From a virus, in the IMG/VR virus record IMGVR_UViG_3300008255_000003, positions 65,897 through 129,896 of that record: 64,000 nucleotides of DNA; one strand, 5' to 3'. This document shows, one piece after another, positions 1,465-63,864 of this stretch. Both the position numbers and the translations under genes were made by a program. The notes under the pieces were generated by a model. That model was not told where the DNA came from. It did no database searches and was given only the letters and a program-made list of their open reading frames with translations. Positions within the stretch are counted from its first letter, which is position 1; each line of letters opens with the position of its first letter.

Positions 1465-1483
1465 ACATGCAACCGCTGCATGT
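1465..1483. repeat. Dispersed 19-bp palindrome, copy 1 (one core mismatch), intergenic
   Basis: ACATGCAACCGCTGCATGT; arms extend to GAAAAGGACATGCA/TGCATGTCCTTTTC (1458-1490). Confidence 0.85.
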
Positions 1484-1503
1484 CCTTTTCTTTGGAGGTA
1501 AGC

Positions 1504-2391
1504 ATGAGTGATGTGACTGGGTTGATGTACTTCTGCCGCGAGCTTACGATCTCTAATGGTGAACGATGTATTGCCATTGGAAACAGCGATAAGGGGATGG
1601 TGGTTATCATGCTTAAACACCTCAAAGGTGATGACATACCGCTGACTATCCTTGGGCCTGGTGTTTACATAGATAAGATCTCAAAGCGTATGCCTGCGCG
1701 ATCTCATGTTCGCAAGGTGCTATCCAGATACACAGTGATGGGGATGGCGCATAACGGACCTGTCTTCATTCGTGAGAATGGGCGCGTGCTCTATGCTATA
1801 AGGCCATTCACCATGCCCCCAGCGACGAAGCTTTATCCTGGCGACATTGTATCGGTGGGGGGTAGGAGTCTGCCGCTAGTTTACCTTGGTCAGTACAAGG
1901 GTCAGATCTATCTAGGCTCTTGGTCTGAGGTGAATGATATGGCGTTGGCTTCAAGCATGGTCGCCTATGGCACCGAGCCTTATGCAAACTCCCATCTCTA
2001 CATTTATCTCTTTGGTGGTGATGAGTCTGAGATCTCTTACATCTCACCGCGCGAGGGTAATGATCATGACGATGAGGAAGCGCGCGCCGTTCAGAGAAGA
2101 TTGGTTGCCAGGCCTGCCATTGGTTCGGTTGTGGGTATCAGGGGTTTTAAGGGGTACAAGCTCCTAGTTTCCGGCTTTAGTCAGACGGAATATGGGAACG
2201 TCGAGATGTACGTTGCGGGCCTACTAAGCCCTGATGAGCTTCCGGGTGCAAAGACACTAAGGAAGGCGATGGATACATCGTTCTGGACGCTGGTGTCTCT
2301 ACCCGTTGAACGCGTCTACAACATCAGGCCAGCCACACCAAAGACTAAGGCTGATGTGATGAGGTTGGGCGCCTTGAGGTATGTTGAATGA
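1504..2391 (+). CDS. Hypothetical protein
   Basis: Long ORF; start moved to ATG 1504 because GGAGG lies at 1494-1498. Confidence 0.7.
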   Translation: MSDVTGLMYFCRELTISNGERCIAIGNSDKGMVVIMLKHLKGDDIPLTILGPGVYIDKISKRMPARSHVRKVLSRYTVMGMAHNGPVFIRENGRVLYAIRPFTMPPATKLYPGDIVSVGGRSLPLVYLGQYKGQIYLGSWSEVNDMALASSMVAYGTEPYANSHLYIYLFGGDESEISYISPREGNDHDDEEARAVQRRLVARPAIGSVVGIRGFKGYKLLVSGFSQTEYGNVEMYVAGLLSPDELPGAKTLRKAMDTSFWTLVSLPVERVYNIRPATPKTKADVMRLGALRYVE

Positions 2392-2873
2392 AAATCATGA
2401 TGACGCTTCTCGCCTTAATCACCTTATCTTGCGCACAGGACAAGGTGGCGCTCAAACCAAAGCCAGCTATTGAGCTTAGGGAGATCTCACCGACTCCACC
2501 CGTGGCTGACGGCATGGTAAGGGCCTTGCCAGTAAAGCCTGATGCTGAGCAGGAGTGGTGTATCGGAGTCTTAAGTTTACCACCTGATGGCATCGTACTG
2601 AGTGAATCGAAGGCGCTCCAGGCTGCGAGACTTAGAGTTTATGCAGAAGAGATGAATGTTGCAGCGTCATACAACAAGACATATTGTGAGATGTGGTCTG
2701 AAGCTGCGTTGCGGCGGGTCAATGCCCTTGAGTCTAGGGAACTGGAGAGAATAGAAGATGAGCAGCGGTGGTGGAACAGACACAAGCTGAACATCACATT
2801 TATAGGCGGCCTCACCTTGGGATCTGTGATTACGATTCTGGTGGTTTATGGCGTCAATCAGGCTGGAGATTAA
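2388..2873 (+). CDS. Predicted lipoprotein with C-terminal TM helix (u-spanin-like topology)
   Basis: Signal MKIMMTLLALITLS-C with Cys15, Pro-rich linker, C-terminal hydrophobic ITFIGGLTLGSVITILVVYGV. Confidence 0.5.
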   Translation: MKIMMTLLALITLSCAQDKVALKPKPAIELREISPTPPVADGMVRALPVKPDAEQEWCIGVLSLPPDGIVLSESKALQAARLRVYAEEMNVAASYNKTYCEMWSEAALRRVNALESRELERIEDEQRWWNRHKLNITFIGGLTLGSVITILVVYGVNQAGD

Positions 2874-2874
2874 A

Positions 2875-3207
2875 ATGCCTAAAAAAAGTTTTAAGAACAA
2901 TAAGATCAGAAGGCCCTACTCAACCAACGGTGAGCTTGTAAGCTCCGAGCTTTGGAGTGCACGTCAGTCTACTCACAAGAGGTTCCTTAAGGCGTGTCAC
3001 ATGACACCTTTAAGCCCTTCTGACTGGCGAAACATCATCGCGCAATCTTTGGGCCTTCCACCGAGCAAGGCTCATGTTCGATACTTCAGCGCGGATCTTT
3101 GCAAGCAGGTTGAAGAGCTTTTGAGTCGCAAGGAAGTTGAGCTTAGGGCTCGTGGTAAATGGGGCATTGAATACAAAAGGAGGAATTGTGCGAGAAAATC
3201 TAGCTGA
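2875..3207 (+). CDS. Small basic protein resembling the C-terminal helical part of DUF3268-type phage proteins
   Basis: ARQSTHKRF...IAQSLGLPPSKAHVRYFSADLC resembles the recalled pattern R..AH..FD...LA..LG....H...F...C; ATG 2875 after GGAG. Confidence 0.45.
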   Translation: MPKKSFKNNKIRRPYSTNGELVSSELWSARQSTHKRFLKACHMTPLSPSDWRNIIAQSLGLPPSKAHVRYFSADLCKQVEELLSRKEVELRARGKWGIEYKRRNCARKSS

Positions 3208-3490: not shown

Positions 3491-3491
3491 G

Positions 3492-3519
3492 TTGTCAACA
3501 AGTATTGATAGAAAATAAT
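3492..3519 (+). promoter_or_regulatory. Possible sigma70-like promoter
   Basis: TTGTCA-N16-AATAAT in an AT-rich intergenic gap upstream of 3584. Confidence 0.3.
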
Positions 3520-4138: not shown

Positions 4139-4185
4139 CGCAAAAAACCCCAACATGCAACGGTTGCATGTTGGGGTTTTTTGCG
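4139..4185. terminator. Bidirectional intrinsic terminator whose stem contains the dispersed palindrome
   Basis: Perfect 23-bp arms CGCAAAAAACCCCAACATGCAAC-G-GTTGCATGTTGGGGTTTTTTGCG between convergent genes, with A6 and T6 tracts. Confidence 0.8.
4153..4171. repeat. Dispersed 19-bp palindrome, copy 2, between convergent genes
   Basis: ACATGCAACGGTTGCATGT, consensus. Confidence 0.95.
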
Positions 4186-6760: not shown

Positions 6761-7184
6761 ATTGTAGTGCAAACGAACGAAAGCCCTAAGAGCTGTAAAC
6801 CAGTTCCCAGGGCTAACGTTCGTCCCACCATCAACACTGAGTAAGTAATTTTTACTCAAGTACATGTAAGGTAGAGAGAGAGAGAAGAAACATATGCATA
6901 CCATACTGATGTATATGAAACTTACTAAGATGACTTTGGACACACACGCTAAGAGCTAAGCTCTTTCCCTATGGGATGTCATAGCCATAGAGATGCTTGA
7001 GTGGTGGTAAGGTTGACGATACATCAACCCTAGGTTCTTATGAGTCTCCTGTTGTTCTAGTTTAAGGCCTTGTTAGAGTTTGACGGGCTCTAGTTCGGGC
7101 TCTACTTGCCGCATTGGCTTCCGATCTGGCGTTAGGATAGACCTATATATTGAGAGCGGGCAAGCGCGCAGTTAAGATTTATAG

Positions 7185-7203
7185 ACGTGCAACGGTTGCA
7201 TGT
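7185..7203. repeat. Dispersed palindrome, copy 3, intergenic
   Basis: ACGTGCAACGGTTGCATGT. Confidence 0.9.
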
Positions 7204-8228: not shown

Positions 8229-8247
8229 ACATGCAACGGTTGCATGT
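8229..8247. repeat. Dispersed palindrome, copy 4, 1 nt after a stop codon
   Basis: ACATGCAACGGTTGCATGT. Confidence 0.95.
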
Positions 8248-10987: not shown

Positions 10988-11227
10988 ATGAAGTCAAAAA
11001 AATCCAAGTCTTTTCCACCTCAAGTGTTGACTGAGGTGGTTGGTGAACGTTTCGACCTAATATATTGCCCGTTGCTTATGAAGCAGCGGCCTTCTCTTAT
11101 GTGTGCTGAGACTTGCGCATGTAGCGCATGGTCACACACCAAAAGAGACATCATGAGAAGTAAATGCGGCCCATATAAGGCCCATTTGGGGAGTGGCGTT
11201 TATGATCAAAAGCAAGGTGAGGATTAG
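10988..11227 (+). CDS. Small Cys-containing hypothetical protein
   Basis: 79 aa with CP...CAETCAC...C. Confidence 0.5.
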   Translation: MKSKKSKSFPPQVLTEVVGERFDLIYCPLLMKQRPSLMCAETCACSAWSHTKRDIMRSKCGPYKAHLGSGVYDQKQGED

Positions 11228-11624
11228 CTGCGGCCATGTTGTGCTTGTGCCTCGCAGGTTAATCCCTGGCGAGCCCGCCACAGTCAATGTTAATACAAGC
11301 CAGTGTCTCAGATGCAGGCACCAGTGTGTTACTGACGGCGGCCACAAGCCAAGGTCTAGGAATGGCAGCCCATCCTCACCCCATGCAACCGTTGCATGTC
11401 AAGGTGTCGTCTTTGAGACGAGCGAGACATACGATCGCATTGTCAGGTTGGTCGGCATCAAGCTAGATCAGCGCGGCATTAAATATGATGACTTGAGGCT
11501 TGTAGATCAGCATGTCTGGATGGCATCATTATCAGGTGAAGATGTTGCCATGATTCTGCTCAAGGGTGCACCTGCCGAGCTGCTGAAGGGCCAAAAGATT
11601 CCTGTTCTGTTCCTTGGGATATAA
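11202..11624 (+). CDS. Hypothetical protein with CxxH/CxxC motifs
   Basis: SCGH and CLRC motifs; ATG 11202 after GGGGAG; contains palindrome copy 5. Confidence 0.55.
   Translation: MIKSKVRISCGHVVLVPRRLIPGEPATVNVNTSQCLRCRHQCVTDGGHKPRSRNGSPSSPHATVACQGVVFETSETYDRIVRLVGIKLDQRGIKYDDLRLVDQHVWMASLSGEDVAMILLKGAPAELLKGQKIPVLFLGI
11381..11399. repeat. Dispersed palindrome, copy 5, inside a CDS (read as HATVAC)
   Basis: CCATGCAACCGTTGCATGT. Confidence 0.9.
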
Positions 11625-13501: not shown

Positions 13502-13520
13502 ACATGCAACCGTTGCATGT
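13502..13520. repeat. Dispersed palindrome, copy 6, upstream of SNF2
   Basis: G-ACATGCAACCGTTGCATGT-C. Confidence 0.95.
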
Positions 13521-17797: not shown

Positions 17798-18108
17798 CTG
17801 GTGTACCTGAGCGCCTAGCCGCTTGGCGCGATCTCGGCTTTGATGCGGTCCGCCCACCTGTTGCAGGGGAGTGGGTGGACCTACCATCAGGGGTTAGGGT
17901 TGTGGTGCGCGAGGTCTACCGATATGATGACCTCAGACCATACGCTGATGGGGATGTATTCTCTGCGTGTATGCGCTCTCATCTCGGTGTTAATTGGAAG
18001 AAATTACTGGCTGTCGTGATCGTTAACTCGGACAGTCTTGGAGATTACTATGCGTGGGAATTGGCTTACCCGTACCTCATCAGTGCGCCGCCTGATTGGT
18101 GGTCGTGA
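17674..18108 (+). CDS. Hypothetical protein (start uncertain, probably near 17790)
   Basis: Fills the gap between neighbours; the first ~40 codons overlap the upstream gene. Confidence 0.4.
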   Translation: MGSGARGQGDVGNAVRPVSPPVKKGAARACGAVRLAAGLGLTGVPERLAAWRDLGFDAVRPPVAGEWVDLPSGVRVVVREVYRYDDLRPYADGDVFSACMRSHLGVNWKKLLAVVIVNSDSLGDYYAWELAYPYLISAPPDWWS

Positions 18109-18118
18109 ACGATCGGTG

Positions 18119-19018
18119 ATGGTGTCTGTAGGAGCTGAAGCTGCTGTGTTGCTGCTTTGGATTTTGGAAGTTTCAGAACACACCCTTCATGGTGATAAGA
18201 TCCTGTCTGAGCTTAGGCCGGATCTTGATGTTTATCTTGGCCTCGCCGGAAACTCACAGAGCCTTGTTGGTGTGCTTTGTGCTGAGGGCTGGCTGGTTGA
18301 GACTGAGTGGCCTAACTTTGTTGAGGTCGGGCAGCTCATGGATGACGGCATGGTGAGGATTCACTTTGACTGCGTGTTCACAACATCAGTCATGGAAGCC
18401 CAGGCCAAGGCCAAGCGTGATAAGATCCTCGCTGATCGCACGCAACGGTTGCATGTTAAAAGCTCAGATAGTGAGGCGAAGACTGATCAGGCCAGTGTTG
18501 AAGAGCCTAGGTCTGCTGCTGTTTCTGACCTTATTGATGCGATCACTGCCAAGTCTGACAAGGTGGCCAGTGAGAGCATTGAACGGCGCCGCAAGCGCGC
18601 TGCTGAGAAGCCACCAAAGCCTAAAGCTGAGCCTAGAAAGACATCGGCAACTGTCTTTGCAGAATGGAAGGTGCTTTATTCTGCCCAATATGGAGAGCAG
18701 CCGGAGTCAATGTTTAATGGTGGTAAGCTTTCTGCCGAGGGTGGCCGTATGAGTACGGTTGTCAAGAAAGCTGGCAGTGTTGATGCGGCTCTTGCGTTCA
18801 TCCGAGAGGTCATGGGAAGGCATGGCGATTACGCCAAGCTCTATCGACATGCTGGCGTGTTTGATGGTGCGTTTCTCTTGAGGATAGTTGGCGAAGTGAC
18901 ATTTGCTCAGTCCCGCGACCTTGATCCCATCAAACACATACAGTCAATCAAGTCGTCTCCCAACGCATCAGGCGCGAAGGATAAGGCTAAGGGTGCTGAG
19001 TTTAAGGATGACTTCTAG
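18119..19018 (+). CDS. Putative replication initiator-like protein
   Basis: Directly before the DnaC-like and DnaB genes; N-terminal winged-helix-like region and basic linker; assignment is by gene order. Confidence 0.45.
   Translation: MVSVGAEAAVLLLWILEVSEHTLHGDKILSELRPDLDVYLGLAGNSQSLVGVLCAEGWLVETEWPNFVEVGQLMDDGMVRIHFDCVFTTSVMEAQAKAKRDKILADRTQRLHVKSSDSEAKTDQASVEEPRSAAVSDLIDAITAKSDKVASESIERRRKRAAEKPPKPKAEPRKTSATVFAEWKVLYSAQYGEQPESMFNGGKLSAEGGRMSTVVKKAGSVDAALAFIREVMGRHGDYAKLYRHAGVFDGAFLLRIVGEVTFAQSRDLDPIKHIQSIKSSPNASGAKDKAKGAEFKDDF
18438..18456. repeat. Dispersed palindrome, copy 7 (one core mismatch), inside a CDS (TQRLHV)
   Basis: GCACGCAACGGTTGCATGT. Confidence 0.8.
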
Positions 19019-22070: not shown

Positions 22071-22089
22071 GCTTGCAACGGTTGCATGT
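22071..22089. repeat. Dispersed palindrome, copy 8, just after the dcd stop
   Basis: GCTTGCAACGGTTGCATGT. Confidence 0.9.
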
Positions 22090-22146: not shown

Positions 22147-22530
22147 ATGCGTTTTCTTGGTGGTACGATCCTGCCCTTGCAGGAGGGCGACTTTATGATT
22201 AGGAGCACTGATGATCCTAATCCAGAATATCTGCGTGTCGTTGAGATTGTGAGTGTTGAGGATGGTGAGATAGAGATCGAGGCCATTGACAGTAAGGGCG
22301 AACGCGTATCGTTCTACTGCCTGGTTAGTCGAGTGGCCGATCTCGTCATGATAAGGCATGAGGACGCATCGAGCGTACACAACCTTGAGCTTAGGTGCCG
22401 TGAGGTTATGCTCTTGTGTGAGCTTGAGCGTTGTCAGTCTAACGTGCTCAAGCTTGAGATCATGAGGGCTCTTGGTGCGTTGAGGTCTGTGATGACCAAG
22501 TTGGGCATGCGGCGCTCTGAGGTGGGTTGA
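22147..22530 (+). CDS. Hypothetical protein
   Basis: ATG 22147 after GGAG. Confidence 0.6.
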   Translation: MRFLGGTILPLQEGDFMIRSTDDPNPEYLRVVEIVSVEDGEIEIEAIDSKGERVSFYCLVSRVADLVMIRHEDASSVHNLELRCREVMLLCELERCQSNVLKLEIMRALGALRSVMTKLGMRRSEVG

Positions 22531-23717
22531 TGGATACGGGTAAGGTCATTGATGTGTTGAGGCTCCTTGGATGCACCGACATTGACAGCCGCCCATCATC
22601 ATCAGGATGGCTCAAAGCGAGCTGTCCTTTTGCTCGGTGGAATCATTCTGGAGGCACTGACTCAAGCCCTTCATTTGCCGTCAATGTCACTGGTGAGCGC
22701 GTAGGCTACTGCTGCTTCTCTTGCCATGAGAAGGGCGGCTCTCTAAGGGGTCTTACGAACAAGATTGCCAAGCGAACAGCCGTTCCTTGGGATGTCCAAA
22801 TGCTTGTGCAGCAGATTGAGGGTAGCTACAGTCCAAAGCCGTTACAGTCAGACCCGGCCAAGGTTGGCTATGACATCAAGATGCCGATCTTTAGCTCTGC
22901 TGATGAGTCTGATCTTTTCCAGCCGTCAATCTTTGGTGAGTCTGAACCTGCAACGGTTGCATGTCTTGAGGAGTCAGACCTTGCCAGTTATAGCAACACC
23001 ATACCTGATTACCTTGTAAGGCGTGGATTTGAGGTTGCTGAGCTTAAGCGCTGGGGCATCATGACTGATAGTTACAATCCAAGGTTTGAACGCGCGGTGT
23101 TTCCTGTAAGGGATGCTCAAGGCAGGCTTCTGGCCTACTCAAAGCGAGCGACATGGGATAAACCGATCTGTCAGAATTGCGGCTATTCATCACCGCCTGA
23201 TGAGAAGTTGATGTTGATGACTCCCACGGACGCTAAGCGTGTGTCATGTAGGTGGGGTCAAAGACACTGCCCGTCATGCAACCGATGGGTTTGGCCTAAA
23301 TATCAACATTCCAAGGGTTACAAGCGTAACAACTATCTCTACGGTGAGCATCTTATTGACCCTGCGCTTCGAGCGGGTGTATTGGTTGAGGGTAATCTTG
23401 ATCCGATAAAGCTCAGTCAGTATGGCGTGAAGAACGCTGTGGCCAGTTTGGGGTCAATGCTTGGCACGGGTTGGGGCGACAAGTCTTCACCTGGCGAGCA
23501 ACTTTGGAAGTTAAATCAGCACTTCGATCTAGTCTATGCCGTCGCTGATGGTGATGTGGCTGGTAAGGACTGGCTGTCAACGTTGACCAAATTTTTCGCC
23601 GGAAAACCACAGCTTTTGACTGTGATCCCGATAGAATTAGGTCGTGGTAAAGACCCTGGCGATTTGGAAAAACATGATGTAGATTATTTGTTCAGTGGAA
23701 CGAAAGTTCTAAAATAA
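22530..23717 (+). CDS. dnaG: DnaG-type DNA primase
   Basis: CHC2-type finger CPFARWNH...CFSC; TOPRIM LVEGNLD and VADGDVAG; KDPGDL. Confidence 0.85.
   Translation: MDTGKVIDVLRLLGCTDIDSRPSSSGWLKASCPFARWNHSGGTDSSPSFAVNVTGERVGYCCFSCHEKGGSLRGLTNKIAKRTAVPWDVQMLVQQIEGSYSPKPLQSDPAKVGYDIKMPIFSSADESDLFQPSIFGESEPATVACLEESDLASYSNTIPDYLVRRGFEVAELKRWGIMTDSYNPRFERAVFPVRDAQGRLLAYSKRATWDKPICQNCGYSSPPDEKLMLMTPTDAKRVSCRWGQRHCPSCNRWVWPKYQHSKGYKRNNYLYGEHLIDPALRAGVLVEGNLDPIKLSQYGVKNAVASLGSMLGTGWGDKSSPGEQLWKLNQHFDLVYAVADGDVAGKDWLSTLTKFFAGKPQLLTVIPIELGRGKDPGDLEKHDVDYLFSGTKVLK
22946..22964. repeat. Dispersed palindrome, copy 9, inside the primase linker (PATVAC)
   Basis: ACCTGCAACGGTTGCATGT. Confidence 0.9.
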
Positions 23718-26788: not shown

Positions 26789-26807
26789 ACGTGCAACGGT
26801 TGCATGT
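26789..26807. repeat. Dispersed palindrome, copy 10, abutting the thyX stop
   Basis: ACGTGCAACGGTTGCATGT. Confidence 0.9.
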
Positions 26808-26812: not shown

Positions 26813-26838
26813 GCTGGAGGCTTACACCTCCAGCTTTT
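26813..26838 (+). terminator. Intrinsic terminator just after palindrome copy 10
   Basis: GCTGGAGG/CCTCCAGC followed by TTTT. Confidence 0.65.
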
Positions 26839-28435: not shown

Positions 28436-28454
28436 ACATGCAACGGTTGCATGT
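28436..28454. repeat. Dispersed palindrome, copy 11, between the helicase and recA
   Basis: G-ACATGCAACGGTTGCATGT-C. Confidence 0.95.
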
Positions 28455-30420: not shown

Positions 30421-30913
30421 AGCCCCATCCCCATTCAACAACTCACCAAGAGATCATTGGCTATGGTTGGATGAGTCGAAGCGTCTTTACTTGAGGGCTG
30501 AGTTCATCGAGTGGCTCAATAGAATCCCGGCGCCCCAACACCGTGTGGGCGCTGTTGGTTATTACACTCAGGTCGCGTTTCTTTTAAGGCGTGTTCTTGA
30601 CTACTGTGATGATAAGTGTGTTTGTCCTGCGCTGGTGATTCTTTACCTTTGGCCTTATAACTCTAGGGCTGACGATGTTTTCTTCGGAGTCTACTCCACC
30701 ATCATAGAGATCTCGGAGCTTAACAGGCTTAGGCGCTGGCTTAATGCTGTTGGTGATGATGTTGATCTTTCTGGAGAGCGGAAAAATCTTTTCATAATTG
30801 AGTCTGGAGCATCGACAACTCACGGGTTGCTTGATGCGATCCATCAGAAGCTTAACTGGATTGGCCTTGCTGATCTGTGGCAGGAGGAGAGTGATGAGCG
30901 ACTGGATTGGTAA
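30383..30913 (+). CDS. Hypothetical protein (start uncertain)
   Basis: Overlaps both neighbours in an operon-like arrangement. Confidence 0.6.
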   Translation: MVLVMTMTMTVIRAPSPFNNSPRDHWLWLDESKRLYLRAEFIEWLNRIPAPQHRVGAVGYYTQVAFLLRRVLDYCDDKCVCPALVILYLWPYNSRADDVFFGVYSTIIEISELNRLRRWLNAVGDDVDLSGERKNLFIIESGASTTHGLLDAIHQKLNWIGLADLWQEESDERLDW

Positions 30914-31778
30914 GCCTGGTGAAAACGTGTCTCTTGCTAGTCTTCTGGCAAGCGAGGGTGACTCATGCAGGGACATCGCACCATACGGACCTGATAGCCC
31001 CATCAGGGGACACGCTATCGCTTCGACATGCACCATGCTTGAGGGCCTTTGTCTTAAGCATGGCATTGTCAGGCAAAGCTCCACGGTATCGCCCCATCTG
31101 AGGATGATCTTTCTTTTGGGCACTGGCATACATCAGGCCATGCAGGATTCAATTCTTGCGCCCTATCTGGTGGGCGCTTGGAGGTGTCGGGGCTGCTCCA
31201 AGCAATATAATCCACCCAAGGGGCAACTCATGAGGCGCCCTTCAAAATGCACGAAGTCAAGCTGTGCGAATAGTAACTACAGCGAAGACGTAAAGAGTGA
31301 CTGGCACCTTCCCGGTTTCGCTTATATTGAGCCTGTTCTTAATAGCGAGAAGCCTTATGTCCAGGGCCACGCTGACGGTGTGATGTGTATTTCAGATCTC
31401 GACAAGGCCACCATCCCTGAAGGCGATGAAGGCCTTGAGGTGATTGAGATCAAGTCCACATCATCACCTGACGCGATCATCCCCTTAAGCCCCGACCACG
31501 AGACTCAGTTAAACATCTATATGGGCTTAATGGGAATCCATAAGGGCAGAGTCATATATGTGCGCAAGACCGGCACACACTTACATGGCATCTTGAGCGA
31601 ACATATCGTGAGGTTTGACGCCGAGGCTTATGGTCGCAACATGCAACGGTTGCAGGCCATAGAAGATGCTGTCGAGGCTGATGATCTTAGTGTCCTTGAA
31701 AGGTCTTGCAGCAAGGCGGACTGCGCCCGATCGAAGAAATGCCCGGTCAGCGATCTTTGCTGGCAGATCGGAAAATAA
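30894..31778 (+). CDS. Cas4/RecB-like PD-(D/E)xK exonuclease
   Basis: LGTGIH, GHADG, IEIKS, QLNIYM, C-terminal C...C....C.....C cluster. Confidence 0.8.
   Translation: MSDWIGKPGENVSLASLLASEGDSCRDIAPYGPDSPIRGHAIASTCTMLEGLCLKHGIVRQSSTVSPHLRMIFLLGTGIHQAMQDSILAPYLVGAWRCRGCSKQYNPPKGQLMRRPSKCTKSSCANSNYSEDVKSDWHLPGFAYIEPVLNSEKPYVQGHADGVMCISDLDKATIPEGDEGLEVIEIKSTSSPDAIIPLSPDHETQLNIYMGLMGIHKGRVIYVRKTGTHLHGILSEHIVRFDAEAYGRNMQRLQAIEDAVEADDLSVLERSCSKADCARSKKCPVSDLCWQIGK
31639..31657. repeat. Dispersed palindrome, copy 12, inside a CDS (MQRLQA)
   Basis: ACATGCAACGGTTGCAGGC. Confidence 0.85.
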
Positions 31779-31872: not shown

Positions 31873-32583
31873 ATGCAGAGCGAGATCTGGGCTTGTGATC
31901 ATAGCGGCATAGGCGTGTCTGTCCCTAGTCTGGACTGCGCCAAATGCTGGGATGCTTATAACAAGGCTAAAGGTCTGCCCTCATTTAATAGGCTTGATGC
32001 AAAGCGCTTTAAATGGCGCTCTAAATCAGGCTCAAAGATGGTCAATGTCTATGAGAAGTCGGGCGAGATCGCTTGGCATCTCAAGGGCTTGAAAGCGGTT
32101 AGGGTTGATATGGTCAATGTGTCTGATCAGTCTGTCATGGGCATAGATCTATCGCTTACATCAACCGGGCTAGCGTTCGTTGAGATCGTCAATGATGAGC
32201 TTAGGTATGCCGTCTGCTCATACGGCATTCAGTACGGCAAGAAGGCATCATCAGCACTTAAGATGCGAAGGCTGCACGTCATAGCATCGTGGGTGGCTTC
32301 TTTTGGCCACATGGCCAGAGAGATCGTCATTGAAGATCACGCGCCTTCTCGGGCGGCTTTTGGTGGCCTCCATCTAGCTGAGCTTCATGGTGCGGTTAAA
32401 TTCGCACTCCTTGATCTTGGCTATGACTGCGGCTTGGTTGGCGTCAAAGAGGCGCGAGCAAAAGTTGTCCTTAATGGCGCTTGTCCTAAAGATGATGTGA
32501 CCAGTATCATCGCTGACCACGGATTCAGATTTGATAACGATGACGAGAGTGACGCGATAGTGATTGCACTATCCATGATTTAA
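31873..32583 (+). CDS. ruvC: RuvC-like Holliday-junction resolvase with N-terminal extension
   Basis: MGIDLSLTSTG, IVIED, LAELHGAVK, DDESDAIVIA. Confidence 0.8.
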   Translation: MQSEIWACDHSGIGVSVPSLDCAKCWDAYNKAKGLPSFNRLDAKRFKWRSKSGSKMVNVYEKSGEIAWHLKGLKAVRVDMVNVSDQSVMGIDLSLTSTGLAFVEIVNDELRYAVCSYGIQYGKKASSALKMRRLHVIASWVASFGHMAREIVIEDHAPSRAAFGGLHLAELHGAVKFALLDLGYDCGLVGVKEARAKVVLNGACPKDDVTSIIADHGFRFDNDDESDAIVIALSMI

Positions 32584-32584
32584 G

Positions 32585-32603
32585 GCGTGCAACGGTTGCA
32601 TGT
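32585..32603. repeat. Dispersed palindrome, copy 13, directly upstream of the H1-like gene
   Basis: GCGTGCAACGGTTGCATGT. Confidence 0.9.
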
Positions 32604-36490: not shown

Positions 36491-38260
36491 GTGGCGCTAA
36501 GAGATGTTTGGGATAACCTCAGTGGTTTTTTCGATAAGAAAGACGATCAGCTAAGGGATATAGATCAAGAGCGCTTTGGTGATATGGGCTCTTTGAGTGG
36601 TGGCTCCTATACGTCTTGGGGTAAATACTCTAATCAGATGAATAGTCTCACCACGATGGACCATGATCTATACAGTAGGAATCTCGAATATGAGCAGATG
36701 GATGGCCACACCGACATCGCGGCAGCCTTGGACATCTATGCTGATGAGGCTACACAGCCAGACTTCTTTAGGCGCGTCCCTATCTGGGTTGAGAGCACCA
36801 ATAACAACGTTGCCAGCGAGCTTAACGCGCTGCTTCATAAGAGACTGAGGGTTAGCTCTTGGTTGTGGGAGTTGACCAGGGGCGTCTGCAAGTACGGCCA
36901 GCAGTATCAGCGGTGGTATGTTGGTGAGGATGGCATCATTGCTTCTGAGCCTGTACCAGCGCCAGCTACGCGCAAGGTATACGATCAGTATGGTCATGCT
37001 CTTGGTTATTTGGTGTCGAAGAGCGGCACAGGTGCTGTCAATGCTGATGCGTTCAGGCGTGTGATCAGGAGTCAGTCAGACTTTGCGGGCAACAATGTCA
37101 GGTCGCTCTTCTCGCGCAATAGTGAGATAGCGTTTTATGACTGGGAGCTTAGCCACTTCAAGCTTCAGGGTCGCGATCGCATGTCTGATTATGGGTGGGC
37201 TGTGACCGAGCCCGTGCGAGGTTCTTATCGTCGCCTAATAATCATGGAAGATAGCGCGTTGGTTTATAAGCTTACTCGCGCGCCTTCTAGGCTGGTGTTT
37301 TACGTTGACACTGGTGAGTTGACTGGACGTCAAGCGATGGCGCAGGTCAATGTCGTAAAGGATGCCTTGAGAACCAAGAAGCACCTATCCAAGAATCAGC
37401 CAGGCAAGATGGAGCTAACCTTTGATCCCACCTTCTTAGACGACTTCTTTCTGCCCGTGCATTCGGTTAAAGGTAGGAGCGTCGAGATCGACACCCTGCA
37501 AGGGCCGGATTACCAGGCCATGATGGATGTTGTGTACTTTAAGGATCAGGTTGGTCGCGGCTTGAAGATTCCCGACTTTGGGCGTTCTGAGAATAGTGGT
37601 GGAGGTACTGGCTTACTTTCCCAGCGCGACTTCAGGTTTGCTGCGATGATCATGCGCATTCAGCGCGCAGTGTGCGAAGGGTTCAGGTTTGCTTGTCATG
37701 TTCACCTTATCGCCCTGGGCTATGATCCTTATGACTTCGACTTTGAAATTGTGATGGCAGTGCCTTCTGCAATCCTTGAGCTTGCGAGAATGGAGGTTCT
37801 ATCTGCAAAGTCGGACATCATCTCGCGTCTTGGTGAGAATATCTCGGTCAGGTGGCTAATGGTCAACCTGCTTGGGTTGTCTGAGGATGAGGCTGTAATG
37901 CTCATGGTTCAGCGGCAAGAGGAGCTAGACTTCGTTGCTGGTGGTGAGCTTGATCGTGAGTCTGCCAGAGAGCGCATGAGTTCGCTTATGCGTGAGGGCG
38001 CTGATATGAGTGATGCGGCTGTCACTGAGAGGGCGGAGGCTCACATCAAGCTGAAGGGTAGTCGTGGAGCTAGAGGTGTAACGCTTAACGAGTTTTACGG
38101 CGGCTCTAATGATCACTCACCAAGTAAGATCCTAAAAGAGCTACAGACAAACCACCGCGATCTTCTCGCTCGACTGAACAATCTTAGCACTGTTGTGGAG
38201 TCCATCAGCTCTCACCACGGCATGTCGTCATTCGCACAGTCGCCACCGAGTCATAAGTAA
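36491..38260 (+). CDS. Portal protein (T4 gp20-like)
   Basis: AALDIYADEA, MEDSALVYKLTRAPSRLVFYVDTG, DDFFLP, IDTLQG, LKIP. Confidence 0.9.
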   Translation: MALRDVWDNLSGFFDKKDDQLRDIDQERFGDMGSLSGGSYTSWGKYSNQMNSLTTMDHDLYSRNLEYEQMDGHTDIAAALDIYADEATQPDFFRRVPIWVESTNNNVASELNALLHKRLRVSSWLWELTRGVCKYGQQYQRWYVGEDGIIASEPVPAPATRKVYDQYGHALGYLVSKSGTGAVNADAFRRVIRSQSDFAGNNVRSLFSRNSEIAFYDWELSHFKLQGRDRMSDYGWAVTEPVRGSYRRLIIMEDSALVYKLTRAPSRLVFYVDTGELTGRQAMAQVNVVKDALRTKKHLSKNQPGKMELTFDPTFLDDFFLPVHSVKGRSVEIDTLQGPDYQAMMDVVYFKDQVGRGLKIPDFGRSENSGGGTGLLSQRDFRFAAMIMRIQRAVCEGFRFACHVHLIALGYDPYDFDFEIVMAVPSAILELARMEVLSAKSDIISRLGENISVRWLMVNLLGLSEDEAVMLMVQRQEELDFVAGGELDRESARERMSSLMREGADMSDAAVTERAEAHIKLKGSRGARGVTLNEFYGGSNDHSPSKILKELQTNHRDLLARLNNLSTVVESISSHHGMSSFAQSPPSHK

Positions 38261-38278
38261 CATGCAACCGTTGCATGT
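38260..38278. repeat. Dispersed palindrome, copy 14, filling the gap between the portal stop and the next ATG
   Basis: ACATGCAACCGTTGCATGT. Confidence 0.95.
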
Positions 38279-39908: not shown

Positions 39909-41810
39909 ATGTCGCAGCAAATACTTGTCGAGGCGCCCGTTGAGGAGATTAGAGTTCAGCTCGCTGAGGGTAGCACTCCAGGCCGTAAGGTGATCTTTCT
40001 TGAGGGCGCTTTCGGCGTGGTGGATAAGCTTACCGCTAACGGGCGTGTCTATTCTTCATCAATCATCCAGGCTCAGATCGATCGCCTTGGCAAGTACATG
40101 AGCCGCCGCGCATTGTTTGGTGAGGTCGATCACCCATCTACGGCTCAGGTGAGTCTGATGAATGCGGGCACGCTGATCGAGTCGCTAAGGATCGATCCAG
40201 ATGGCATTGTTCGTGGCAAGATGCGCATCCTTGATGGCGACTATGGGCCTGGTGATAAGCTTCGCTCACTTGTTGATCACGGCGTGTCTCTTGGCGTCTC
40301 GTCAAGGGGTACTGGCAGTGTTGTGAAAGATGGCTCTCGCCACATCGTTCAGTCTGACTTTTACCTGTCAGCGTTTGATGTTGTCGCGGTCCCTGCTTTT
40401 GATGGCGCCTACCCTTCCGTCCGCACCGAGTCTATAAATGGTGGTGTTGAGGATTTGAGGATCGAGGCATTCAGCTTCGATCGCATAAACAATCATGGAG
40501 ACAGTATGAGTAATCAAAACGCTCATAGCAACGTCAAGCCAGACTCTCAAAGTGAGTCAAATCGCCACCAGCAAGCACTAAGGGCTGATGAGGCGATTGA
40601 GGCAGCGCGCATGCGAGGCTATGAGGCAGGTCTTAACGAGGGCAGGTCTAAGACACTTGCTGAATCATCACAGCAAGACATGCAACGGTTGCAGGCTGAT
40701 AACAAGGTTCTGTCTGAGCAGTTGTCTGGCGCCAACATGAAGGTGGAGATCATTGAGTCTGAGCTTACCCAGATTAAGGCAAGCTCGCTCAAGGGTATGG
40801 TGGAGTCTGAGCTTCGCCGTCACCTTCCATTCGTTGTTGAGTCTGACCGCGAGGCCTTCAAGAACCTGATCCCACAATGGTCAAGCGTCACAGACTTTGA
40901 TTCTTTCAAGTCTGCTTTGGACTGTGTTGTTGAGGACTTCAAGCGCACTGACAGATACCTTGATCTTGATGAAGATGGTCTTGCCGAGAGTGTCATTAAC
41001 GCCTTGGATAATGAGGCGTACTTGAGTGAGTCGGTTGAGCTTCTTGAGTTTGCACGCGCTGCTATTGTGGATCTTAGGGAGCAGGCAGCCTACGCAGCCA
41101 ACCTCGATGAGTCGCTGGACCTTCTGTCTAATGCTCATGCTCACATCTCACTCTTGTCTGTGGAGCACCTTAAGACGCAGACGGCCCTTGATGAGGCTAT
41201 TGATCTTATCGAGTCGCTGGAGGCAGATGTTGACACTTTGAAGAAAGAGCGTCGAAGCCTTCGCAATGAGGCTAAGTCTGCACTGTCTGACCTTGAGGCT
41301 CTAAGGCTTGAGAACGAGCAGCTCATTGAGAGTTCCAAGCAGTATAAGCACATGGTGTCAGAATCTAAGCTTATGAGTGAGAGTGTCAAAGCTCTTGAGG
41401 AGAGCGCTCTTGAGTCCAAGAACCAAGCGTTAGAGCTTGAGCTTGAGAAGTACAAGGCTGTGATTGGATCTCCAAACCCGATCACCATGCTAGAGCACCT
41501 CTCTAAGGCGTCTAACGCTCAAGAGGTGCCTCTGCTTGCCGAGCAGTACCGAGGGCAAAGGACAAGGCAGCATAGCCGCCCAGGTGGGCTGACATCTACG
41601 GGTCACAGTATCCTCAATGAGGAGAACATGGGCGACCTTGGTAACGTGATGCAAGCCTTGAATAGCAGGTCGCCAAAGGCGCTGAGTGATGAGCATCAGT
41701 CAACGCTTTCTGAGGGCTTTGGCAATAATGCAAGGCTTGAAGACACCTCCAAGTATGGTGCATCGCTCAATGATCTGAGTGCTATCATGAGGCTCTCAGC
41801 CAAGAATTAG
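39909..41810 (+). CDS. Prohead protease (T4 gp21-like) fused to a coiled-coil scaffold
   Basis: ANGRVY, GEVDHP, GVSSRGTGS, FDVVAVPAFDGAY, then ~450 aa of heptad-rich sequence. Confidence 0.9.
   Translation: MSQQILVEAPVEEIRVQLAEGSTPGRKVIFLEGAFGVVDKLTANGRVYSSSIIQAQIDRLGKYMSRRALFGEVDHPSTAQVSLMNAGTLIESLRIDPDGIVRGKMRILDGDYGPGDKLRSLVDHGVSLGVSSRGTGSVVKDGSRHIVQSDFYLSAFDVVAVPAFDGAYPSVRTESINGGVEDLRIEAFSFDRINNHGDSMSNQNAHSNVKPDSQSESNRHQQALRADEAIEAARMRGYEAGLNEGRSKTLAESSQQDMQRLQADNKVLSEQLSGANMKVEIIESELTQIKASSLKGMVESELRRHLPFVVESDREAFKNLIPQWSSVTDFDSFKSALDCVVEDFKRTDRYLDLDEDGLAESVINALDNEAYLSESVELLEFARAAIVDLREQAAYAANLDESLDLLSNAHAHISLLSVEHLKTQTALDEAIDLIESLEADVDTLKKERRSLRNEAKSALSDLEALRLENEQLIESSKQYKHMVSESKLMSESVKALEESALESKNQALELELEKYKAVIGSPNPITMLEHLSKASNAQEVPLLAEQYRGQRTRQHSRPGGLTSTGHSILNEENMGDLGNVMQALNSRSPKALSDEHQSTLSEGFGNNARLEDTSKYGASLNDLSAIMRLSAKN
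40678..40696. repeat. Dispersed palindrome, copy 15, inside the scaffold (MQRLQA)
   Basis: ACATGCAACGGTTGCAGGC. Confidence 0.85.
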
Positions 41811-44140: not shown

Positions 44141-44159
44141 ACATGCAACCGTTGCACGT
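44141..44159. repeat. Dispersed palindrome, copy 16, 1 nt after a stop codon
   Basis: ACATGCAACCGTTGCACGT. Confidence 0.9.
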
Positions 44160-44162: not shown

Positions 44163-44188
44163 AATGGGCGCTAAGGCGCCCATTTTTT
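44163..44188 (+). terminator. Intrinsic terminator just after palindrome copy 16
   Basis: AATGGGCGC/GCGCCCATT followed by TTTT. Confidence 0.75.
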
Positions 44189-47763: not shown

Positions 47764-48486
47764 ATGAAGGTCATGAAGCAAGGTTTTGCTGAGGCAGCAG
47801 AGCGCATAAAGTGGTTCGCTGAAAACTTTGACAAGGTGCGCGATTACATCCTCATGAGGTGTGTTGAGGATGTGCTTAAGCAGGTTAGCGCGGCAGGAGG
47901 GGCGGCCTTTGAGGATTATGTTCACCGCGTCAGGATTGATATGGGCAGTGGTAATCTACTTTACGGCATATCGGTGGAACCAATGTCTGAAGAGTACAGT
48001 CTTGATGGTCTTGATGACTGTGTTTTGTTTGCTGTTGTAGACCCCGAACACGCCTCAAAATATGGGAAGCTTCTCCAGGGTGAACCTTGGCTGCCAGACC
48101 ACCTGCCCACCAATATAGATAAGGATCATGGCTACTTTCTTAGACGCGAGGTTAATGACTTAGAGCGTGAGACGGTGGGGGCTTCTAACAGAAGGTCACT
48201 GGGAAGGATGCAACCGTTGCATGTCCAGACCAAGATCATACTCCAGTATGACTGGCGCTATACCCTTCTGAGGGGTGAATATGGCCTTGGTGATAAGCCG
48301 TCTGCCCCCATCTGGGTGCCTGCGATAAACAAGATGTTTTCAACTTATACTGAAGACATACTCGAAAGCATTGCAGATATGTTAGTCAGTGGTAAGCTCA
48401 TGGAGGTAAACGAGAGCGTCTACGAGGATAGATCCTCGGAGTGGTACGAACAACACGCCAGCAGCATGATTGGCCTCCTAGTATAG
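47764..48486 (+). CDS. Hypothetical protein
   Basis: ATG after GGAG; contains palindrome copy 17. Confidence 0.65.
   Translation: MKVMKQGFAEAAERIKWFAENFDKVRDYILMRCVEDVLKQVSAAGGAAFEDYVHRVRIDMGSGNLLYGISVEPMSEEYSLDGLDDCVLFAVVDPEHASKYGKLLQGEPWLPDHLPTNIDKDHGYFLRREVNDLERETVGASNRRSLGRMQPLHVQTKIILQYDWRYTLLRGEYGLGDKPSAPIWVPAINKMFSTYTEDILESIADMLVSGKLMEVNESVYEDRSSEWYEQHASSMIGLLV
48206..48224. repeat. Dispersed palindrome, copy 17, inside a CDS (MQPLHV)
   Basis: GGATGCAACCGTTGCATGT. Confidence 0.9.
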
Positions 48487-53027: not shown

Positions 53028-53046
53028 ACATGCAACGGTTGCACGT
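53028..53046. repeat. Dispersed palindrome, copy 18, upstream of the tube gene
   Basis: ACATGCAACGGTTGCACGT. Confidence 0.9.
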
Positions 53047-54796: not shown

Positions 54797-54830
54797 CGGC
54801 CCTCATGGTTTGTTGTAACCTCCAATTCAG

Positions 54831-54849
54831 ACATGCAACGGTTGCACGT
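54831..54849. repeat. Dispersed palindrome, copy 19
   Basis: G-ACATGCAACGGTTGCACGT-C. Confidence 0.9.
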
Positions 54850-54866
54850 CTGAATTGGAGGTTTGT

Positions 54867-62026: not shown

Positions 62027-62893
62027 GTGATGTTATCAAGGTTCATAAGCAGGTTACGCGAGTATGGCCTTGAGGCTCTCGATCTCTATTATGGCATCTA
62101 TACTGGCGAGGTGTCTGACATTAACGATCCTGAAGGTCTTGGGCGCATCAGGGTTATCGTGCCGTCGATTCACAATGACGGTGATGAGCCCCTTCCTTGG
62201 GGCTTTCCTGCGTCGCAAGGATTTGTGAACAATGGCGCGGGTTATGGCACGGCGTCACTTCCGAGGGTGGGCGATAACGTCTGGGTTGTCTTTAGGTTCG
62301 GTAAGCTCCAGTCACCAGTCTACCTCAACGGTTGGTGGGCTAAGGGTGAGATGCCTGACGAGTTGAACGATCCGAAGATCCAAGGTTTTAAAACTGAGTC
62401 TGGCCACTTATCAGTCTGGCAGGATGGCGACGCCCCCTATGTCGAACACAAGCACGCGGGCGGATCTCATATCAGGATAAGCTCAGACGGCGCCATTCTT
62501 ATTGAGACTCAAGATGGTGATCTTATTGAGCTTAAGCCTGGTCAGTCTATCGAGGTCAAGACAGGTTCGGCACAGGTAAAGCTCACATCTTCGTCTATCA
62601 TATCAAAGCTAGGGTCAAGCAGCGTCAAGCTTAGCAGGACTGGTGTTGAGGTTGCTGCTACTGGGGATGTTAAGCTGAGCGCTCCAGTTGTCACCATAGA
62701 CGGCAAGGCATCAGTGAGTCTTGGTTCTGGCGCGTCTTCGCCCCTGGTCAAGGGTGATGTGCTCTATGCGTTCCTAGTTGCATGGTTTACATGGATGTCT
62801 ACACACACACATACGGCGCCTAACGTACCGCCCACCGTGCCGCCTCCAGTGCCGCCATTCTCAATCTTGTCTTTCCTGTCTAGGACCAAGTGA
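62027..62893 (+). CDS. Baseplate spike (gp5/gpV/VgrG OB-fold)
   Basis: YYGIYTGEV....DPEGLGRIRV, LPRVGDNVWVVF...P.Y..GW, beta-repeat and HTHT end motif. Confidence 0.9.
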   Translation: MMLSRFISRLREYGLEALDLYYGIYTGEVSDINDPEGLGRIRVIVPSIHNDGDEPLPWGFPASQGFVNNGAGYGTASLPRVGDNVWVVFRFGKLQSPVYLNGWWAKGEMPDELNDPKIQGFKTESGHLSVWQDGDAPYVEHKHAGGSHIRISSDGAILIETQDGDLIELKPGQSIEVKTGSAQVKLTSSSIISKLGSSSVKLSRTGVEVAATGDVKLSAPVVTIDGKASVSLGSGASSPLVKGDVLYAFLVAWFTWMSTHTHTAPNVPPTVPPPVPPFSILSFLSRTK

Positions 62894-62974
62894 AAATTAA
62901 GTGTCAGAGCGCTCATTAATATTGTATCTATGCAAGGGAGATGCGTTGTCTCCCTGTTTACATTTGGAGGCCCT

Positions 62975-63808
62975 ATGCTTAATTCGGATCACGCTTGGTT
63001 GGCATCGAAAGACGTCCCTACGTTCAGAGGGCTAGATGCGCTGGACAGCTTCAATGACGAGATGATGAATCTTGATCTTTGCGCGCAGAGTGACTACTGG
63101 CGACACGCTGATCGTTATCGCGTTTTGATGCTCAACTTTTGGAGCAATCATTACGTCAGGGTGATGGGCCAGTATAAGGTCAGGTGCAATCAGCTAGAAG
63201 CTACCCGCTGTTTCGTTGCAGGTGATGTTGTTTACCACACTAGTGAGCTGTTTAAATGGCGTTGGCCATGTGCTGAGGTTGTTGGTGATTTTCATGTCCT
63301 TGACCTCGATCGACTTAACGAGGTCAAGGTCGTCTATGGTGTGGATCCTGAGACGGCGGGCGCCATCCATCTCACTGAGAGCTTTGATGCGACAACGAGC
63401 CCATTCCCCAAATTCGGCGTCTGGTTTGTTGATGAGCTTCACCACCAGCTATGGAAAGAGCATTACAGGCTCAGTTTTCGCTATCCTGGCGGTGGTCTTG
63501 CTATTCGGTTTGAGAAGCTGGTGAGCGAGCTTGATCTTCGTCTTAAATATCTACCCCGTCTTTTGGTGTATGGATATGACCATCACAACTGCCTTCGACC
63601 TGCATTTTATGTGAATAGGGATGTACGCTTGCCGGATGTTTTGACTGCTAATTTCCTGACCACCAACTCGCTCAAATTGTCGGCCAATCCTCACACGCTT
63701 GGCGAGCTTCACAAAGCCGCGCTTAACTGGTGTGATTACCACACCCTCAAGCATTTCGACCCGCTCTACTATCAGGAGAAGCTGAGACTTTTCTTAGGCG
63801 CCTACTGA
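62975..63808 (+). CDS. Hypothetical protein
   Basis: ATG 62975 after GGAGG. Confidence 0.65.
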   Translation: MLNSDHAWLASKDVPTFRGLDALDSFNDEMMNLDLCAQSDYWRHADRYRVLMLNFWSNHYVRVMGQYKVRCNQLEATRCFVAGDVVYHTSELFKWRWPCAEVVGDFHVLDLDRLNEVKVVYGVDPETAGAIHLTESFDATTSPFPKFGVWFVDELHHQLWKEHYRLSFRYPGGGLAIRFEKLVSELDLRLKYLPRLLVYGYDHHNCLRPAFYVNRDVRLPDVLTANFLTTNSLKLSANPHTLGELHKAALNWCDYHTLKHFDPLYYQEKLRLFLGAY

Positions 63809-63845
63809 GAAGGTTGAGTTTGAGGCGCAAGAGTCTAAGATGTGG

Positions 63846-63864
63846 ACATGCAACCGTTGCATGT
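63846..63864. repeat. Dispersed palindrome, copy 20
   Basis: GG-ACATGCAACCGTTGCATGT-CC. Confidence 0.95.

Follow-up and report, generated by a model that had tools for sequence, protein, structure and literature searches.

The complete 129,896-bp virus record IMGVR_UViG_3300008255_000003, which has terminal repeats and is rated 100% complete, is dotted with a short, nearly invariant palindrome built around the core TGCAACSGTTGCA, and the second half of the record (positions 65,897 to 129,896, a stretch of 64,000 nucleotides referred to below as the window) contains 20 copies of it. We propose that these repeats are putative docking sites on duplex DNA for a sequence-specific protein of two-fold symmetry, most simply a homodimer, and from the sequence evidence laid out below we regard this as probable. 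Joining such a reader of duplex DNA to genome-wide control of transcription at unit boundaries gives the best explanation of the array as a whole that we can offer, one to which we assign slightly less than an even chance. The phage is a myovirus with sheath, tube, baseplate, portal, capsid and terminase genes, and its replication-type genes encode a DnaB-like helicase, a primase, a UvsX-like recombinase, a class II ribonucleotide reductase and an RpoD-like sigma factor. A search of the phage collection turned up no DNA relative, and the capsid is less than 32% identical to that of any phage there.

Sequence constraint and placement of the palindrome

When the window is searched for the core with up to one mismatch, all 20 copies appear exactly where an earlier reading of the same letters (the original prediction) had placed them, 18 exact and two with one mismatch (core starts 1468 and 18441). 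One hundred dinucleotide-preserving shuffles of the window gave 0.11 copies on average (standard deviation 0.35), and none of them reached 20, which bears out the claim that the repeat occurs far above chance. That test was done on the window, whereas counting over the whole genome gives a total of 50 copies, 40 exact and 10 with one mismatch, which amounts to roughly one every 2.6 kb. As a 19-mer the consensus reads ACATGCAAC-S-GTTGCATGT, with a 13-bp core TGCAAC-S-GTTGCA. Its central base is G in 13 and C in 7 of the window copies, as had been predicted, and genome-wide it is G in 29, C in 20, A in one and T in none, i.e. S in 49 of 50. Only about 1.7% of the cells deviate at core positions, against about 18% at the outer 3 bp (ACA/TGT), a gap of approximately 10-fold; no compensatory changes occur within the 13-bp core among the 50 copies, and conservation of the repeat stops at 19-21 bp. 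The half-site 7-mer ATGCAAC on its own is not over-represented (8 seen against 11.4 expected), and the unit therefore requires both halves.

These features are what a symmetric protein might be expected to impose. The unit read would be the 13-bp core, to which the outer ACA/TGT would add less, and a centre restricted to S is expected from a two-fold symmetric reader that needs a G:C pair there, while in an RNA loop it would be strange. The original prediction's list of G.U and A.C variants is correct, and over the 50 copies of the genome such sense-strand mismatches are balanced, with 17 G.U against 14 A.C. Nor does the central base depend on the direction of transcription (sense G 25 against C 15, not significant). 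The view that a dimeric protein on double-stranded DNA fits best, already put forward in the original prediction, is thus upheld by the invariant core, the S-only centre and the lack of a G.U/A.C bias, and it gains further support from the lack of half-site enrichment, from intragenic copies made by codon choice and from even spacing, the latter two of which are described below.

Approximately 80% of the 50 copies are intergenic, although by crude gene calls intergenic DNA makes up only about 8% of the genome; for the window, the predicted split into 14 intergenic copies and six within open reading frames (ORFs; copies 5, 7, 9, 12, 15 and 17 in Table 1) was recovered. In a filtered count of gene junctions, a copy is found at 27 of 138 co-directional, 5 of 9 convergent and 2 of 9 divergent junctions, and if short minus-strand ORFs are included, convergent junctions hold 7 copies. 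About 40% of all intergenic gaps of at least 15 nt contain a copy. Many copies begin 0-2 nt past a stop codon, and 18 have a start codon 16-39 nt past their centre, against a random expectation of 6%; boundary sites often lie 22-34 nt 5' of a start codon. Between 5 and 7 of the 50 begin 4-9 nt past a sigma70-like -10 hexamer, and two of these motif-adjacent promoters are strong (top score), where 0.025 would be expected; most copies have no promoter. The original prediction had also entertained a role in segregation, for which the roughly 80% of copies at gene boundaries speak poorly, as they look more like punctuation of gene expression.

The intragenic copies, about 10 of the 50, are read in at least two frames, as ATVA, as MQ(R/P)L(H/Q) and, in a single short ORF that may be spurious, as TCNGC. 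The motif accounts for all QRLH, QPLH and QRLQ peptides of the proteome and for 6 of its 8 ATVA peptides. In the ribonucleotide reductase gene, the copy falls within a conserved stretch that aligns to homologues without a gap, and its peptide AYATVAF is common to the nearest reductases; because a different, 198-kb phage keeps AYATVAF with other codons and has no motif copy at all, the reductase site must have been made by synonymous codon choice.

Whether the copies are randomly spaced, a question attached to the original prediction, can be answered clearly: they lie more evenly than chance allows. The coefficient of variation (CV) of the spacing is 0.61, against 0.98 for uniform placement (none of 5000 and none of 10000 simulations was as even) and 0.88 when gene junctions are drawn at random (P about 0.001-0.002). 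Of the 49 gaps, just one is shorter than 700 bp, and the largest extend up to 9 kb. Some long genes are free of sites, namely those for the 971-amino-acid (aa) helicase, the 879-aa sheath and a 1201-aa protein.

Several simpler identities can be discarded. A phage-specific promoter is ruled out by copies at convergent junctions, before immediate terminators and at terminator apexes, and there is no sigma54-type spacing. A DNA-uptake-like or Chi-like word arranged as an inverted pair is ruled out by the lack of enrichment of lone half-sites, a peptide repeat by the use of at least two reading frames, and insertion of a mobile element into the reductase gene by the gapless alignment to homologues. 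A host chromosomal repeat is likewise rejected, since the exact 19-mer occurs just four times, each time singly, in 185,579 species genomes (the host itself is not identified); that no sampled bacterial genome has more than one chance copy also counts in favour of the duplex-DNA reading of the original prediction. In 2.9 million viral contigs, the same species genomes and 241 million metagenome records, the exact motif gives only single matches at chance level, none of them on related DNA, and the 13-mer was found as a published motif in no paper.

Re-spelled arrays in distant relatives

Searching IMG/VR with one capsid protein found no relatives, but a capsid profile search did, and the clade it delineated comprises contigs, the longest of them about 200 kb, whose capsids show no more than 39% identity; the closest capsid relative, P0002, has 65% identity, and protein-cluster records point to another contig, nearly identical and 129,790 bp long. 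The 11-bp core of this phage is absent from all five full clade records scanned. Four genomes carry arrays of their own, and the distant relatives that bear them have capsids 36-38% identical to this one: G004 (133.7 kb) has 23 copies of ccT-GCAAT-CG-ATTGC-Agg, with CG, TG or CA at the centre; G005 (100.4 kb) has 17 copies of the same site; G003 (129.6 kb) has 13 copies of ggC-GCAAT-CG-ATTGC-Gcc; and G006 (199.6 kb) has 13 copies of C-GCAAG-CG-CTTGC-G. No copies were found in G002 (126.3 kb) or in the unrelated G001 (197.7 kb).

Common to these lineages is a GCAA...TTGC block, around which the adjoining base and the outer arms vary and yet stay self-complementary. Dyad symmetry extends to the innermost positions, C-S-G in this phage and T-CG-A or G-CG-C in the relatives, which could not pair within a hairpin, and the half-sites are spaced as GCAA-N3-TTGC here against GCAA-N4-TTGC in the relatives. 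That the array should be found re-spelled around GCAA...TTGC in distantly related myoviruses of 130-200 kb suggests that reader and sites evolve together. Even spacing recurs in G004 (CV 0.51) and G003 (CV 0.40), with P <= 0.002 under two null models; the array of G006 is not evenly spaced (CV 0.88). In G004, 11 of the 23 sites stand 14-33 nt 5' of a start codon. The positions of sites are seldom orthologous between lineages, the orthologous ones being those 5' of the helicase gene (copy 10) and 3' of the sheath gene (copy 18), both common to this phage and G004, and the one 3' of the RuvC-like gene (copy 13), common to this phage and G003. Site-specific flank pairing and T-runs are absent from the relatives' sites, and the terminator and hairpin extensions described below are therefore special to this phage.

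Some further observations on these genomes may be recorded here. The central CG of the G004 site is changed to TG or CA in 9 of its 23 copies, with no other change at that position, which is the pattern expected from deamination of methylated CpG and may link the sites to the phages' DNA methyltransferases; this phage encodes two (L019:7064-8038 and L019:15405-16346). The relatives also have other repeats, which are non-palindromic or of a different kind: besides its array, G006 has AAGCCAACGAGCAAGCT-type words 24-32 times and GAAAACTC-N3-GAGTTTTC about 10 times, and G003 has GATTATGCTGTAA about 13 times; these extra repeats may be phage promoters or second site families.

Hairpins, rival readings and the proposed reader

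As a perfect palindrome, each site would also be transcribed as a hairpin. The original prediction had argued that the loop would be 1 nt long and that no hairpin could form, which is refuted for this phage: the 19-mer folds (-7.5 kcal/mol) with 8 bp in the stem and 3 nt in the loop, and the loop argument therefore does not exclude a hairpin. In 14 of the 50 copies the stem is prolonged directly outside the 19-mer by at least three contiguous base pairs, different in sequence each time (shuffled flanks give 2.3 such copies, with a maximum of 9 in 5000), and the flank covariation score is 0.218, against 0.139 +/- 0.013 for 500 shuffles, none of which scored as high. Folding energies of the extended copies range from -22 to -33 kcal/mol. 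T-runs come after many of these copies, and those at convergent junctions have A-runs and T-runs on their two sides, from which they are taken to be bidirectional intrinsic terminators; copy 2 is the predicted apex of one (4139-4185). The intrinsic-terminator form, a stable hairpin with a U-tract, is seen in about 14 copies (e.g. window 4139-4185, genome 60992-61024 and 65458-65494) and not in bare or intragenic ones. The stem of copy 19 pairs CCTCC with GGAGG, the ribosome-binding site for a baseplate-like gene whose start is at 54867, and this hairpin is a candidate translational control element.

Termination, nevertheless, neither needs nor explains the conserved sequence, since about 30 ordinary terminators with unrelated stems occur elsewhere in the genome and six motif copies lie within 15 nt of a separate ordinary terminator. 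Rfam gave no match in the window at gathering thresholds, so that a known RNA family is rejected. Because the relatives' sites lack the extensions, the uses of the hairpin look like secondary co-option, in which an 8-bp hairpin would be the easiest seed for a terminator or for a stem masking a ribosome-binding site in a compact gap.

An unlikely but substantial alternative to a protein on duplex DNA is that the repeat acts at the RNA level, as a transcribed hairpin that punctuates polycistronic messages, be it as a terminator or attenuator, an end-protecting hairpin or an operator for an RNA-binding protein or nuclease, in the manner of the PeSL stem-loops of T4-type phages, bacterial REP elements or T7 RNase III sites; its constancy would then come from descent and recombination, or from an RNA-binding reader. 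The folding energies of the 19-mer and of its extended forms suit such an element, as do the covarying flanks, the T-runs that follow the stem in the sense direction, the A/T runs on either side at convergent junctions and the copies at 5 of 9 such junctions in the filtered count. It would also account for the pairing of the extended stem at 54817-54863 with a ribosome-binding site, for copies that abut stop codons or sit 22-34 nt 5' of start codons, and for the several copies at the +1 position of a predicted promoter, where a 5' hairpin would stabilise the message; the 1-nt difference at the centre between lineages would merely be that between a 3-nt and a 4-nt loop. What this account handles poorly is the sequence itself. 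The stem is invariant and the centre of the loop variable, the reverse of what is usual in RNA hairpins recognised by proteins; CGG and CCG loops are tolerated and a central A or U is not; and G.U shows no sense-strand excess relative to A.C. A perfect core is kept even by many bare copies that would form just a weak hairpin (-3.1 kcal/mol with an A.C mismatch), the intragenic copies made by codon choice have arms of just 5-8 bp, and the symmetry covers positions that cannot pair. The unrelated terminators, and the six copies placed beside a separate one, also tell against it, as do the relatives' sites, which have neither extended stems nor U-tracts, and the genome encodes no RNase III.

Even spacing, fill-in within genes and positional turnover together suggest coverage of the chromosome, by coating or marking. 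It is conceivable, if rather improbable, that the sites have such a physical role on duplex DNA, serving as even loading or nucleation points for coating, compacting, self-marking or organising the chromosome, as do ParB/parS, Noc/NBS and KorB clamps; this was the reading of the original prediction. Spacing is even in three genomes, long genes contain sites made of synonymous codons as if coverage mattered, density is held while individual positions turn over between lineages, and the 13-bp palindrome with a central S shares its format with the KorB operator TTTAGCSGCTAAA (PMC11790492). No ParB_N, HTH_ParB or KorB domain is found in the six-frame translation, however, which leaves the ParB/parS and Noc/NBS analogies of the original prediction without support; nor would coating need the concentration of about 80% of the sites in about 8% of the DNA, tightly set to start and stop codons, or be well served by the site-free helicase, sheath and 1201-aa genes, by gaps of up to 9 kb and by the unevenly spaced array of G006. 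A related version, in which a non-ParB-like reader of no known family, co-evolving with the palindrome, would use evenly spaced loading sites and coat, silence or mark the whole chromosome, we also consider unlikely; since the sites of this phage are wired into terminators and ribosome-binding sites as well, one protein-DNA interaction could on that version gate transcription and, via the transcribed hairpin, translation. Palindromes are prone to template-switch mutation, and in keeping with this the repeat might be selfish or mutation-driven with no function for the phage, either a REP/MITE-like mobile element or the outcome of template-switch 'palindrome perfection' with gene conversion; the limitation of the exact spelling to one lineage, with single chance-level matches elsewhere, would agree with such an origin. 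We nevertheless judge it very improbable, as the genome has no Y1/RAYT transposase and no integrase, the copies have neither target-site duplications nor shared flanks, the reductase copy arose without an indel, the sharp edge of conservation at 13 bp is unlike a conversion tract, spacing is even with few close pairs, and related arrays persist across lineages with 36-38% capsid identity.

On the preferred reading, that of a symmetric protein bound to duplex DNA, the array would cover the whole 130-kb genome, mostly at gene boundaries. The sites at boundaries and those at the +1 of promoters point to a roadblock that works in both directions, or to an operator: RNA polymerase arriving from either side would be stopped or insulated by the bound protein, and where a sigma70-like promoter has a site at its +1, that site would be its operator. 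Such a mode of action would resemble mycobacteriophage stoperators or the KorB operators of RK2. Each site would also be transcribed as a hairpin, and in about 14 copies this would secondarily have been built up into a longer stem, which would terminate transcription or, in a single instance, mask a ribosome-binding site. Punctuation or silencing of transcription would be the likeliest effect of the bound protein, although, taken by itself, it has less than an even chance.

Recognisable DNA-binding domains are few among the encoded proteins. PHROGs was searched with 40 proteins and Pfam with about 150 of the roughly 160 called ORFs, ten annotated core genes being covered by PHROGs only, and the DNA-binding domains recognised in those scans are those of the sigma factor and of one XRE-type helix-turn-helix protein, P0149 (genome 21703-22020, minus strand), which belongs to a four-gene operon that starts at a copy-bearing divergent junction. 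About 25 nt from the motif copy at that junction there is a second, unrelated 13-bp inverted repeat, ATTTTCTGTCAAT-N5-ATTGACAGAAAAT (genome 23667-23701), with TTGACA on each strand, which may be a bidirectional promoter or operator region. Two proteins of G004 are of the XRE type, and the stop codon of one is followed by a site at a distance of about 50 nt, but these proteins are not detectably orthologous to P0149, for which no orthologue could be detected in the relatives. The six-frame translation gave no match to ParB_N, HTH_ParB or KorB (PF02195, PF17762 and PF08535) at E <= 0.1 to 1, and the genome gave none to the RAYT/Y1 transposase (PF01797); the Pfam scans turned up no MatP or SlmA, the readers of the matS and SBS sites also named in the original prediction, at which no dedicated search was aimed. 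Presence/absence profiling over five genomes produced no candidate reader, because the contigs are incomplete and the identities low. One small conserved protein of 151 aa has, from its sequence, a membrane or holin-type look.

A number of observations weigh against a symmetric duplex reader or against what we suppose it to do. The outer positions (7-9) pair a little more often than chance would give (109 Watson-Crick pairs against 101, P = 0.02), 14 of the 50 copies in this phage have covarying complementary flanks, and the G006 array is uneven. The location of 36-48% of the sites in this phage and G004 at 14-39 nt 5' of a start codon would suit a 5'-leader RNA element as well, and the 1-bp change in half-site spacing between lineages, trivial for a hairpin loop, needs an altered dimer geometry in a DNA-binding protein. 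P0149, the XRE-type protein, is not detectably conserved in the relatives; the rarity of positional orthology argues against gene-specific regulation; and the roadblock or silencing step is pure inference.

Table 1. The 20 copies of the palindrome in the window and their immediate surroundings (window positions)
Copy	Position	Sequence type	Location	Surroundings
1	1465..1483	one core mismatch, centre C	intergenic	flanks give +7 bp stem (1458-1490), -21.9 kcal/mol; then T-rich run, GGAGG and ATG at 1504; promoter-like TAAGAT (-10-like hexamer) ending at 1457
2	4153..4171	centre G	convergent gene junction	flanks give +14 bp (4139-4185), -33.1 kcal/mol; A-run left, T-run right
3	7185..7203	ACGT variant	next start codon at 7226	sigma70-like TTGAGA-17-TAAGAT at 7150-7178; motif begins 6 nt later, at about +1 of the transcript
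4	8229..8247	perfect 19-mer	1 nt past stop codon of upstream gene	
5	11381..11399		within ORF 11202-11624	reads H-A-T-V-A-C
6	13502..13520	perfect 19-mer	13 nt past stop codon	5' of 971-aa helicase gene
7	18438..18456	one core mismatch	within ORF 18050-19018	reads T-Q-R-L-H-V
8	22071..22089		1 nt past stop codon	
9	22946..22964		within primase gene (22530-23717)	reads P-A-T-V-A-C
10	26789..26807		abuts stop codon	separate ordinary terminator 26813-26834, then helicase gene
11	28436..28454	perfect 19-mer	6 nt past stop codon, 19 nt 5' of ATG of UvsX-like gene	promoter-like TTGCTA-18-GAAGAT at 28397-28426
12	31639..31657		within ORF 30894-31778	reads M-Q-R-L-Q
13	32585..32603		1 nt past stop codon of RuvC-like gene	next start codon 23 nt on
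14	38260..38278	perfect 19-mer	abuts stop codon of portal gene	next start codon 12 nt on
15	40678..40696		within gene for 633-aa head protease, residue ~259	reads M-Q-R-L-Q
16	44141..44159	A.C variant	1 nt past stop codon	weak hairpin, -3.1 kcal/mol; separate ordinary terminator 44163-44184
17	48206..48224		within ORF 47764-48486	reads M-Q-P-L-H-V
18	53028..53046		48 nt past tail sheath gene, 29 nt 5' of tail tube gene	
19	54831..54849			flanks give +14 bp (54817-54863); 23-bp perfect-arm hairpin, -30.4 kcal/mol
20	63846..63864	perfect 19-mer	5' of first gene of the circularly joined record	sigma70-like TTGAGT-16-TAAGAT at 63814-63841; motif begins 4 nt later

Some of the other genes deserve a brief mention. 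The RuvC-like gene next to copy 13 (window 31873-32580, Pfam E = 1e-4) encodes a Holliday-junction resolvase of that type. The sigma factor, encoded outside the window (genome 36010-37746, minus strand), is of the primary type and full length, with 578 aa and regions 1.2, 2, 3 and 4; its best matches, at 42-45% identity, are RpoD proteins of Bradymonas, Myxococcota and Desulfobacterota, which may hint at the host lineage, and it was not detected in G002, G003, G004 or G006. The class II (B12-dependent) ribonucleotide reductase (genome 52614-55367) has a TSCPD domain, and its closest homologues, 71-77% identical over the 101-residue segment searched, are encoded on large uncultured contigs, some with inteins, which could be nearer relatives than any reached via the capsid. 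Among 122 ORFs surveyed with Pfam there are also LigT/2H-phosphoesterase-type, SWIM zinc-finger and dCTP-deaminase-like proteins.

Known systems and wider meaning

The closest published description is that of the Cluster O mycobacteriophages, in which a 17-bp dyad repeat, TGTTCGG-N3-CCGAACA, occurs in 34 copies, about one third of them intragenic, in genomes without an integrase (Cresawn et al. 2015, PMC4351075). That repeat has no meaningful orientation to transcription and is absent from the host and from other phages, and its authors predicted a dimeric DNA-binding protein and assigned no function (PMC4351075). Both arrays consist of tens of near-invariant, dispersed and unoriented inverted repeats (here 50 in 129.9 kb, 40 with exact cores) of which a minority are intragenic (here about 10 of 50), both occur without an integrase, and neither sequence is repeated in the other genomes searched. 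They differ in sequence, which is unrelated, in host phylum and in morphotype, and the variable 3-bp spacer there contrasts with the single G/C centre here; even spacing, re-spelled distant arrays and use in terminators were found here and not reported by the Cluster O authors. Dispersed dyad repeats of the Cluster O type are a descriptive class, not a homologous family.

For the action of the putative reader, KorB operators and stoperators are, by analogy, plausible as the best working models. The KorB operator OB of the IncP plasmid RK2 is a 13-bp palindrome with the core TTTAGCGGCTAAA, read by a dimeric global silencer (PMC11790492). It resembles the present site in being a perfect 13-bp palindrome with a central G/C that is dispersed over the replicon, near to or far from promoters. 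KorB, however, is a ParB-family CTPase clamp, and this phage encodes no ParB-family domain. The site load differs as well, RK2 having about 12 OB sites on 60 kb, compared with 50 sites on 130 kb here, which are tied to stop and start codons. The stoperators of Cluster A phages, bound by L5 gp71, are dozens of short intergenic sites in all modules at which the bound protein halts elongating RNA polymerase, and some of them double as true operators at promoters (PMC9283540, PMC6550527). They are asymmetric, read by a monomer and oriented with respect to transcription, and they belong to temperate phages, whereas the sites described here are symmetric and unoriented and the genome has no integrase.

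Resemblances to RNA-level elements are more partial. In the PeSL cassettes of T4-type myoviruses, a stem-loop ends upstream transcription and can overlap a sigma70-like promoter (PMC2839356, PMC4122927), and in one subclass it lies directly past the -10 element (PMC2839356). Like the copies described here, these are repeated intergenic modules of large myoviruses that follow a stop codon and precede the next ribosome-binding site, and they match the roughly 14 terminator-type and the 5-7 promoter-adjacent copies. Unlike them, PeSL cassettes are promoter-defined composites of about 100 bp with loosely conserved, G/C-rich stems, clustered in hyperplastic regions, while the strict 13-19-bp palindrome of this phage occurs in every module, genes included, and has a promoter-like sequence at only 5-7 of its 50 copies. 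REP elements are extragenic palindromes found past stop codons in either orientation and have been implicated in mRNA stabilisation, termination and gyrase binding (PMC3733652). A REP/RAYT system is excluded here, as there is no GTAG/CGTC tag or conserved flank tetranucleotide and no RAYT, the palindromes are perfect, about 10 copies are intragenic, and the element is that of a phage and not of a chromosome.

Taken together, the feature is real, strongly non-random and clade-wide, and it is a variant of a known but unexplained feature of phages. Dispersed invariant palindromes have been described in few cultured phages, those of Cluster O among them. To that description the present case adds an old array whose spelling is specific to each lineage around a fixed GCAA/TTGC, even spacing in three genomes, sites made by synonymous codons in conserved enzymes and symmetry that runs through unpairable bases, and these constraints together point to a symmetric reader of DNA rather than to an RNA structure. 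It illustrates, too, how terminators and translational hairpins can grow from such a site once it has been recruited as their seed. Discovery of the reader would reveal a genome-wide principle of control or organisation in large phages together with a compact, orthogonal protein-operator pair.

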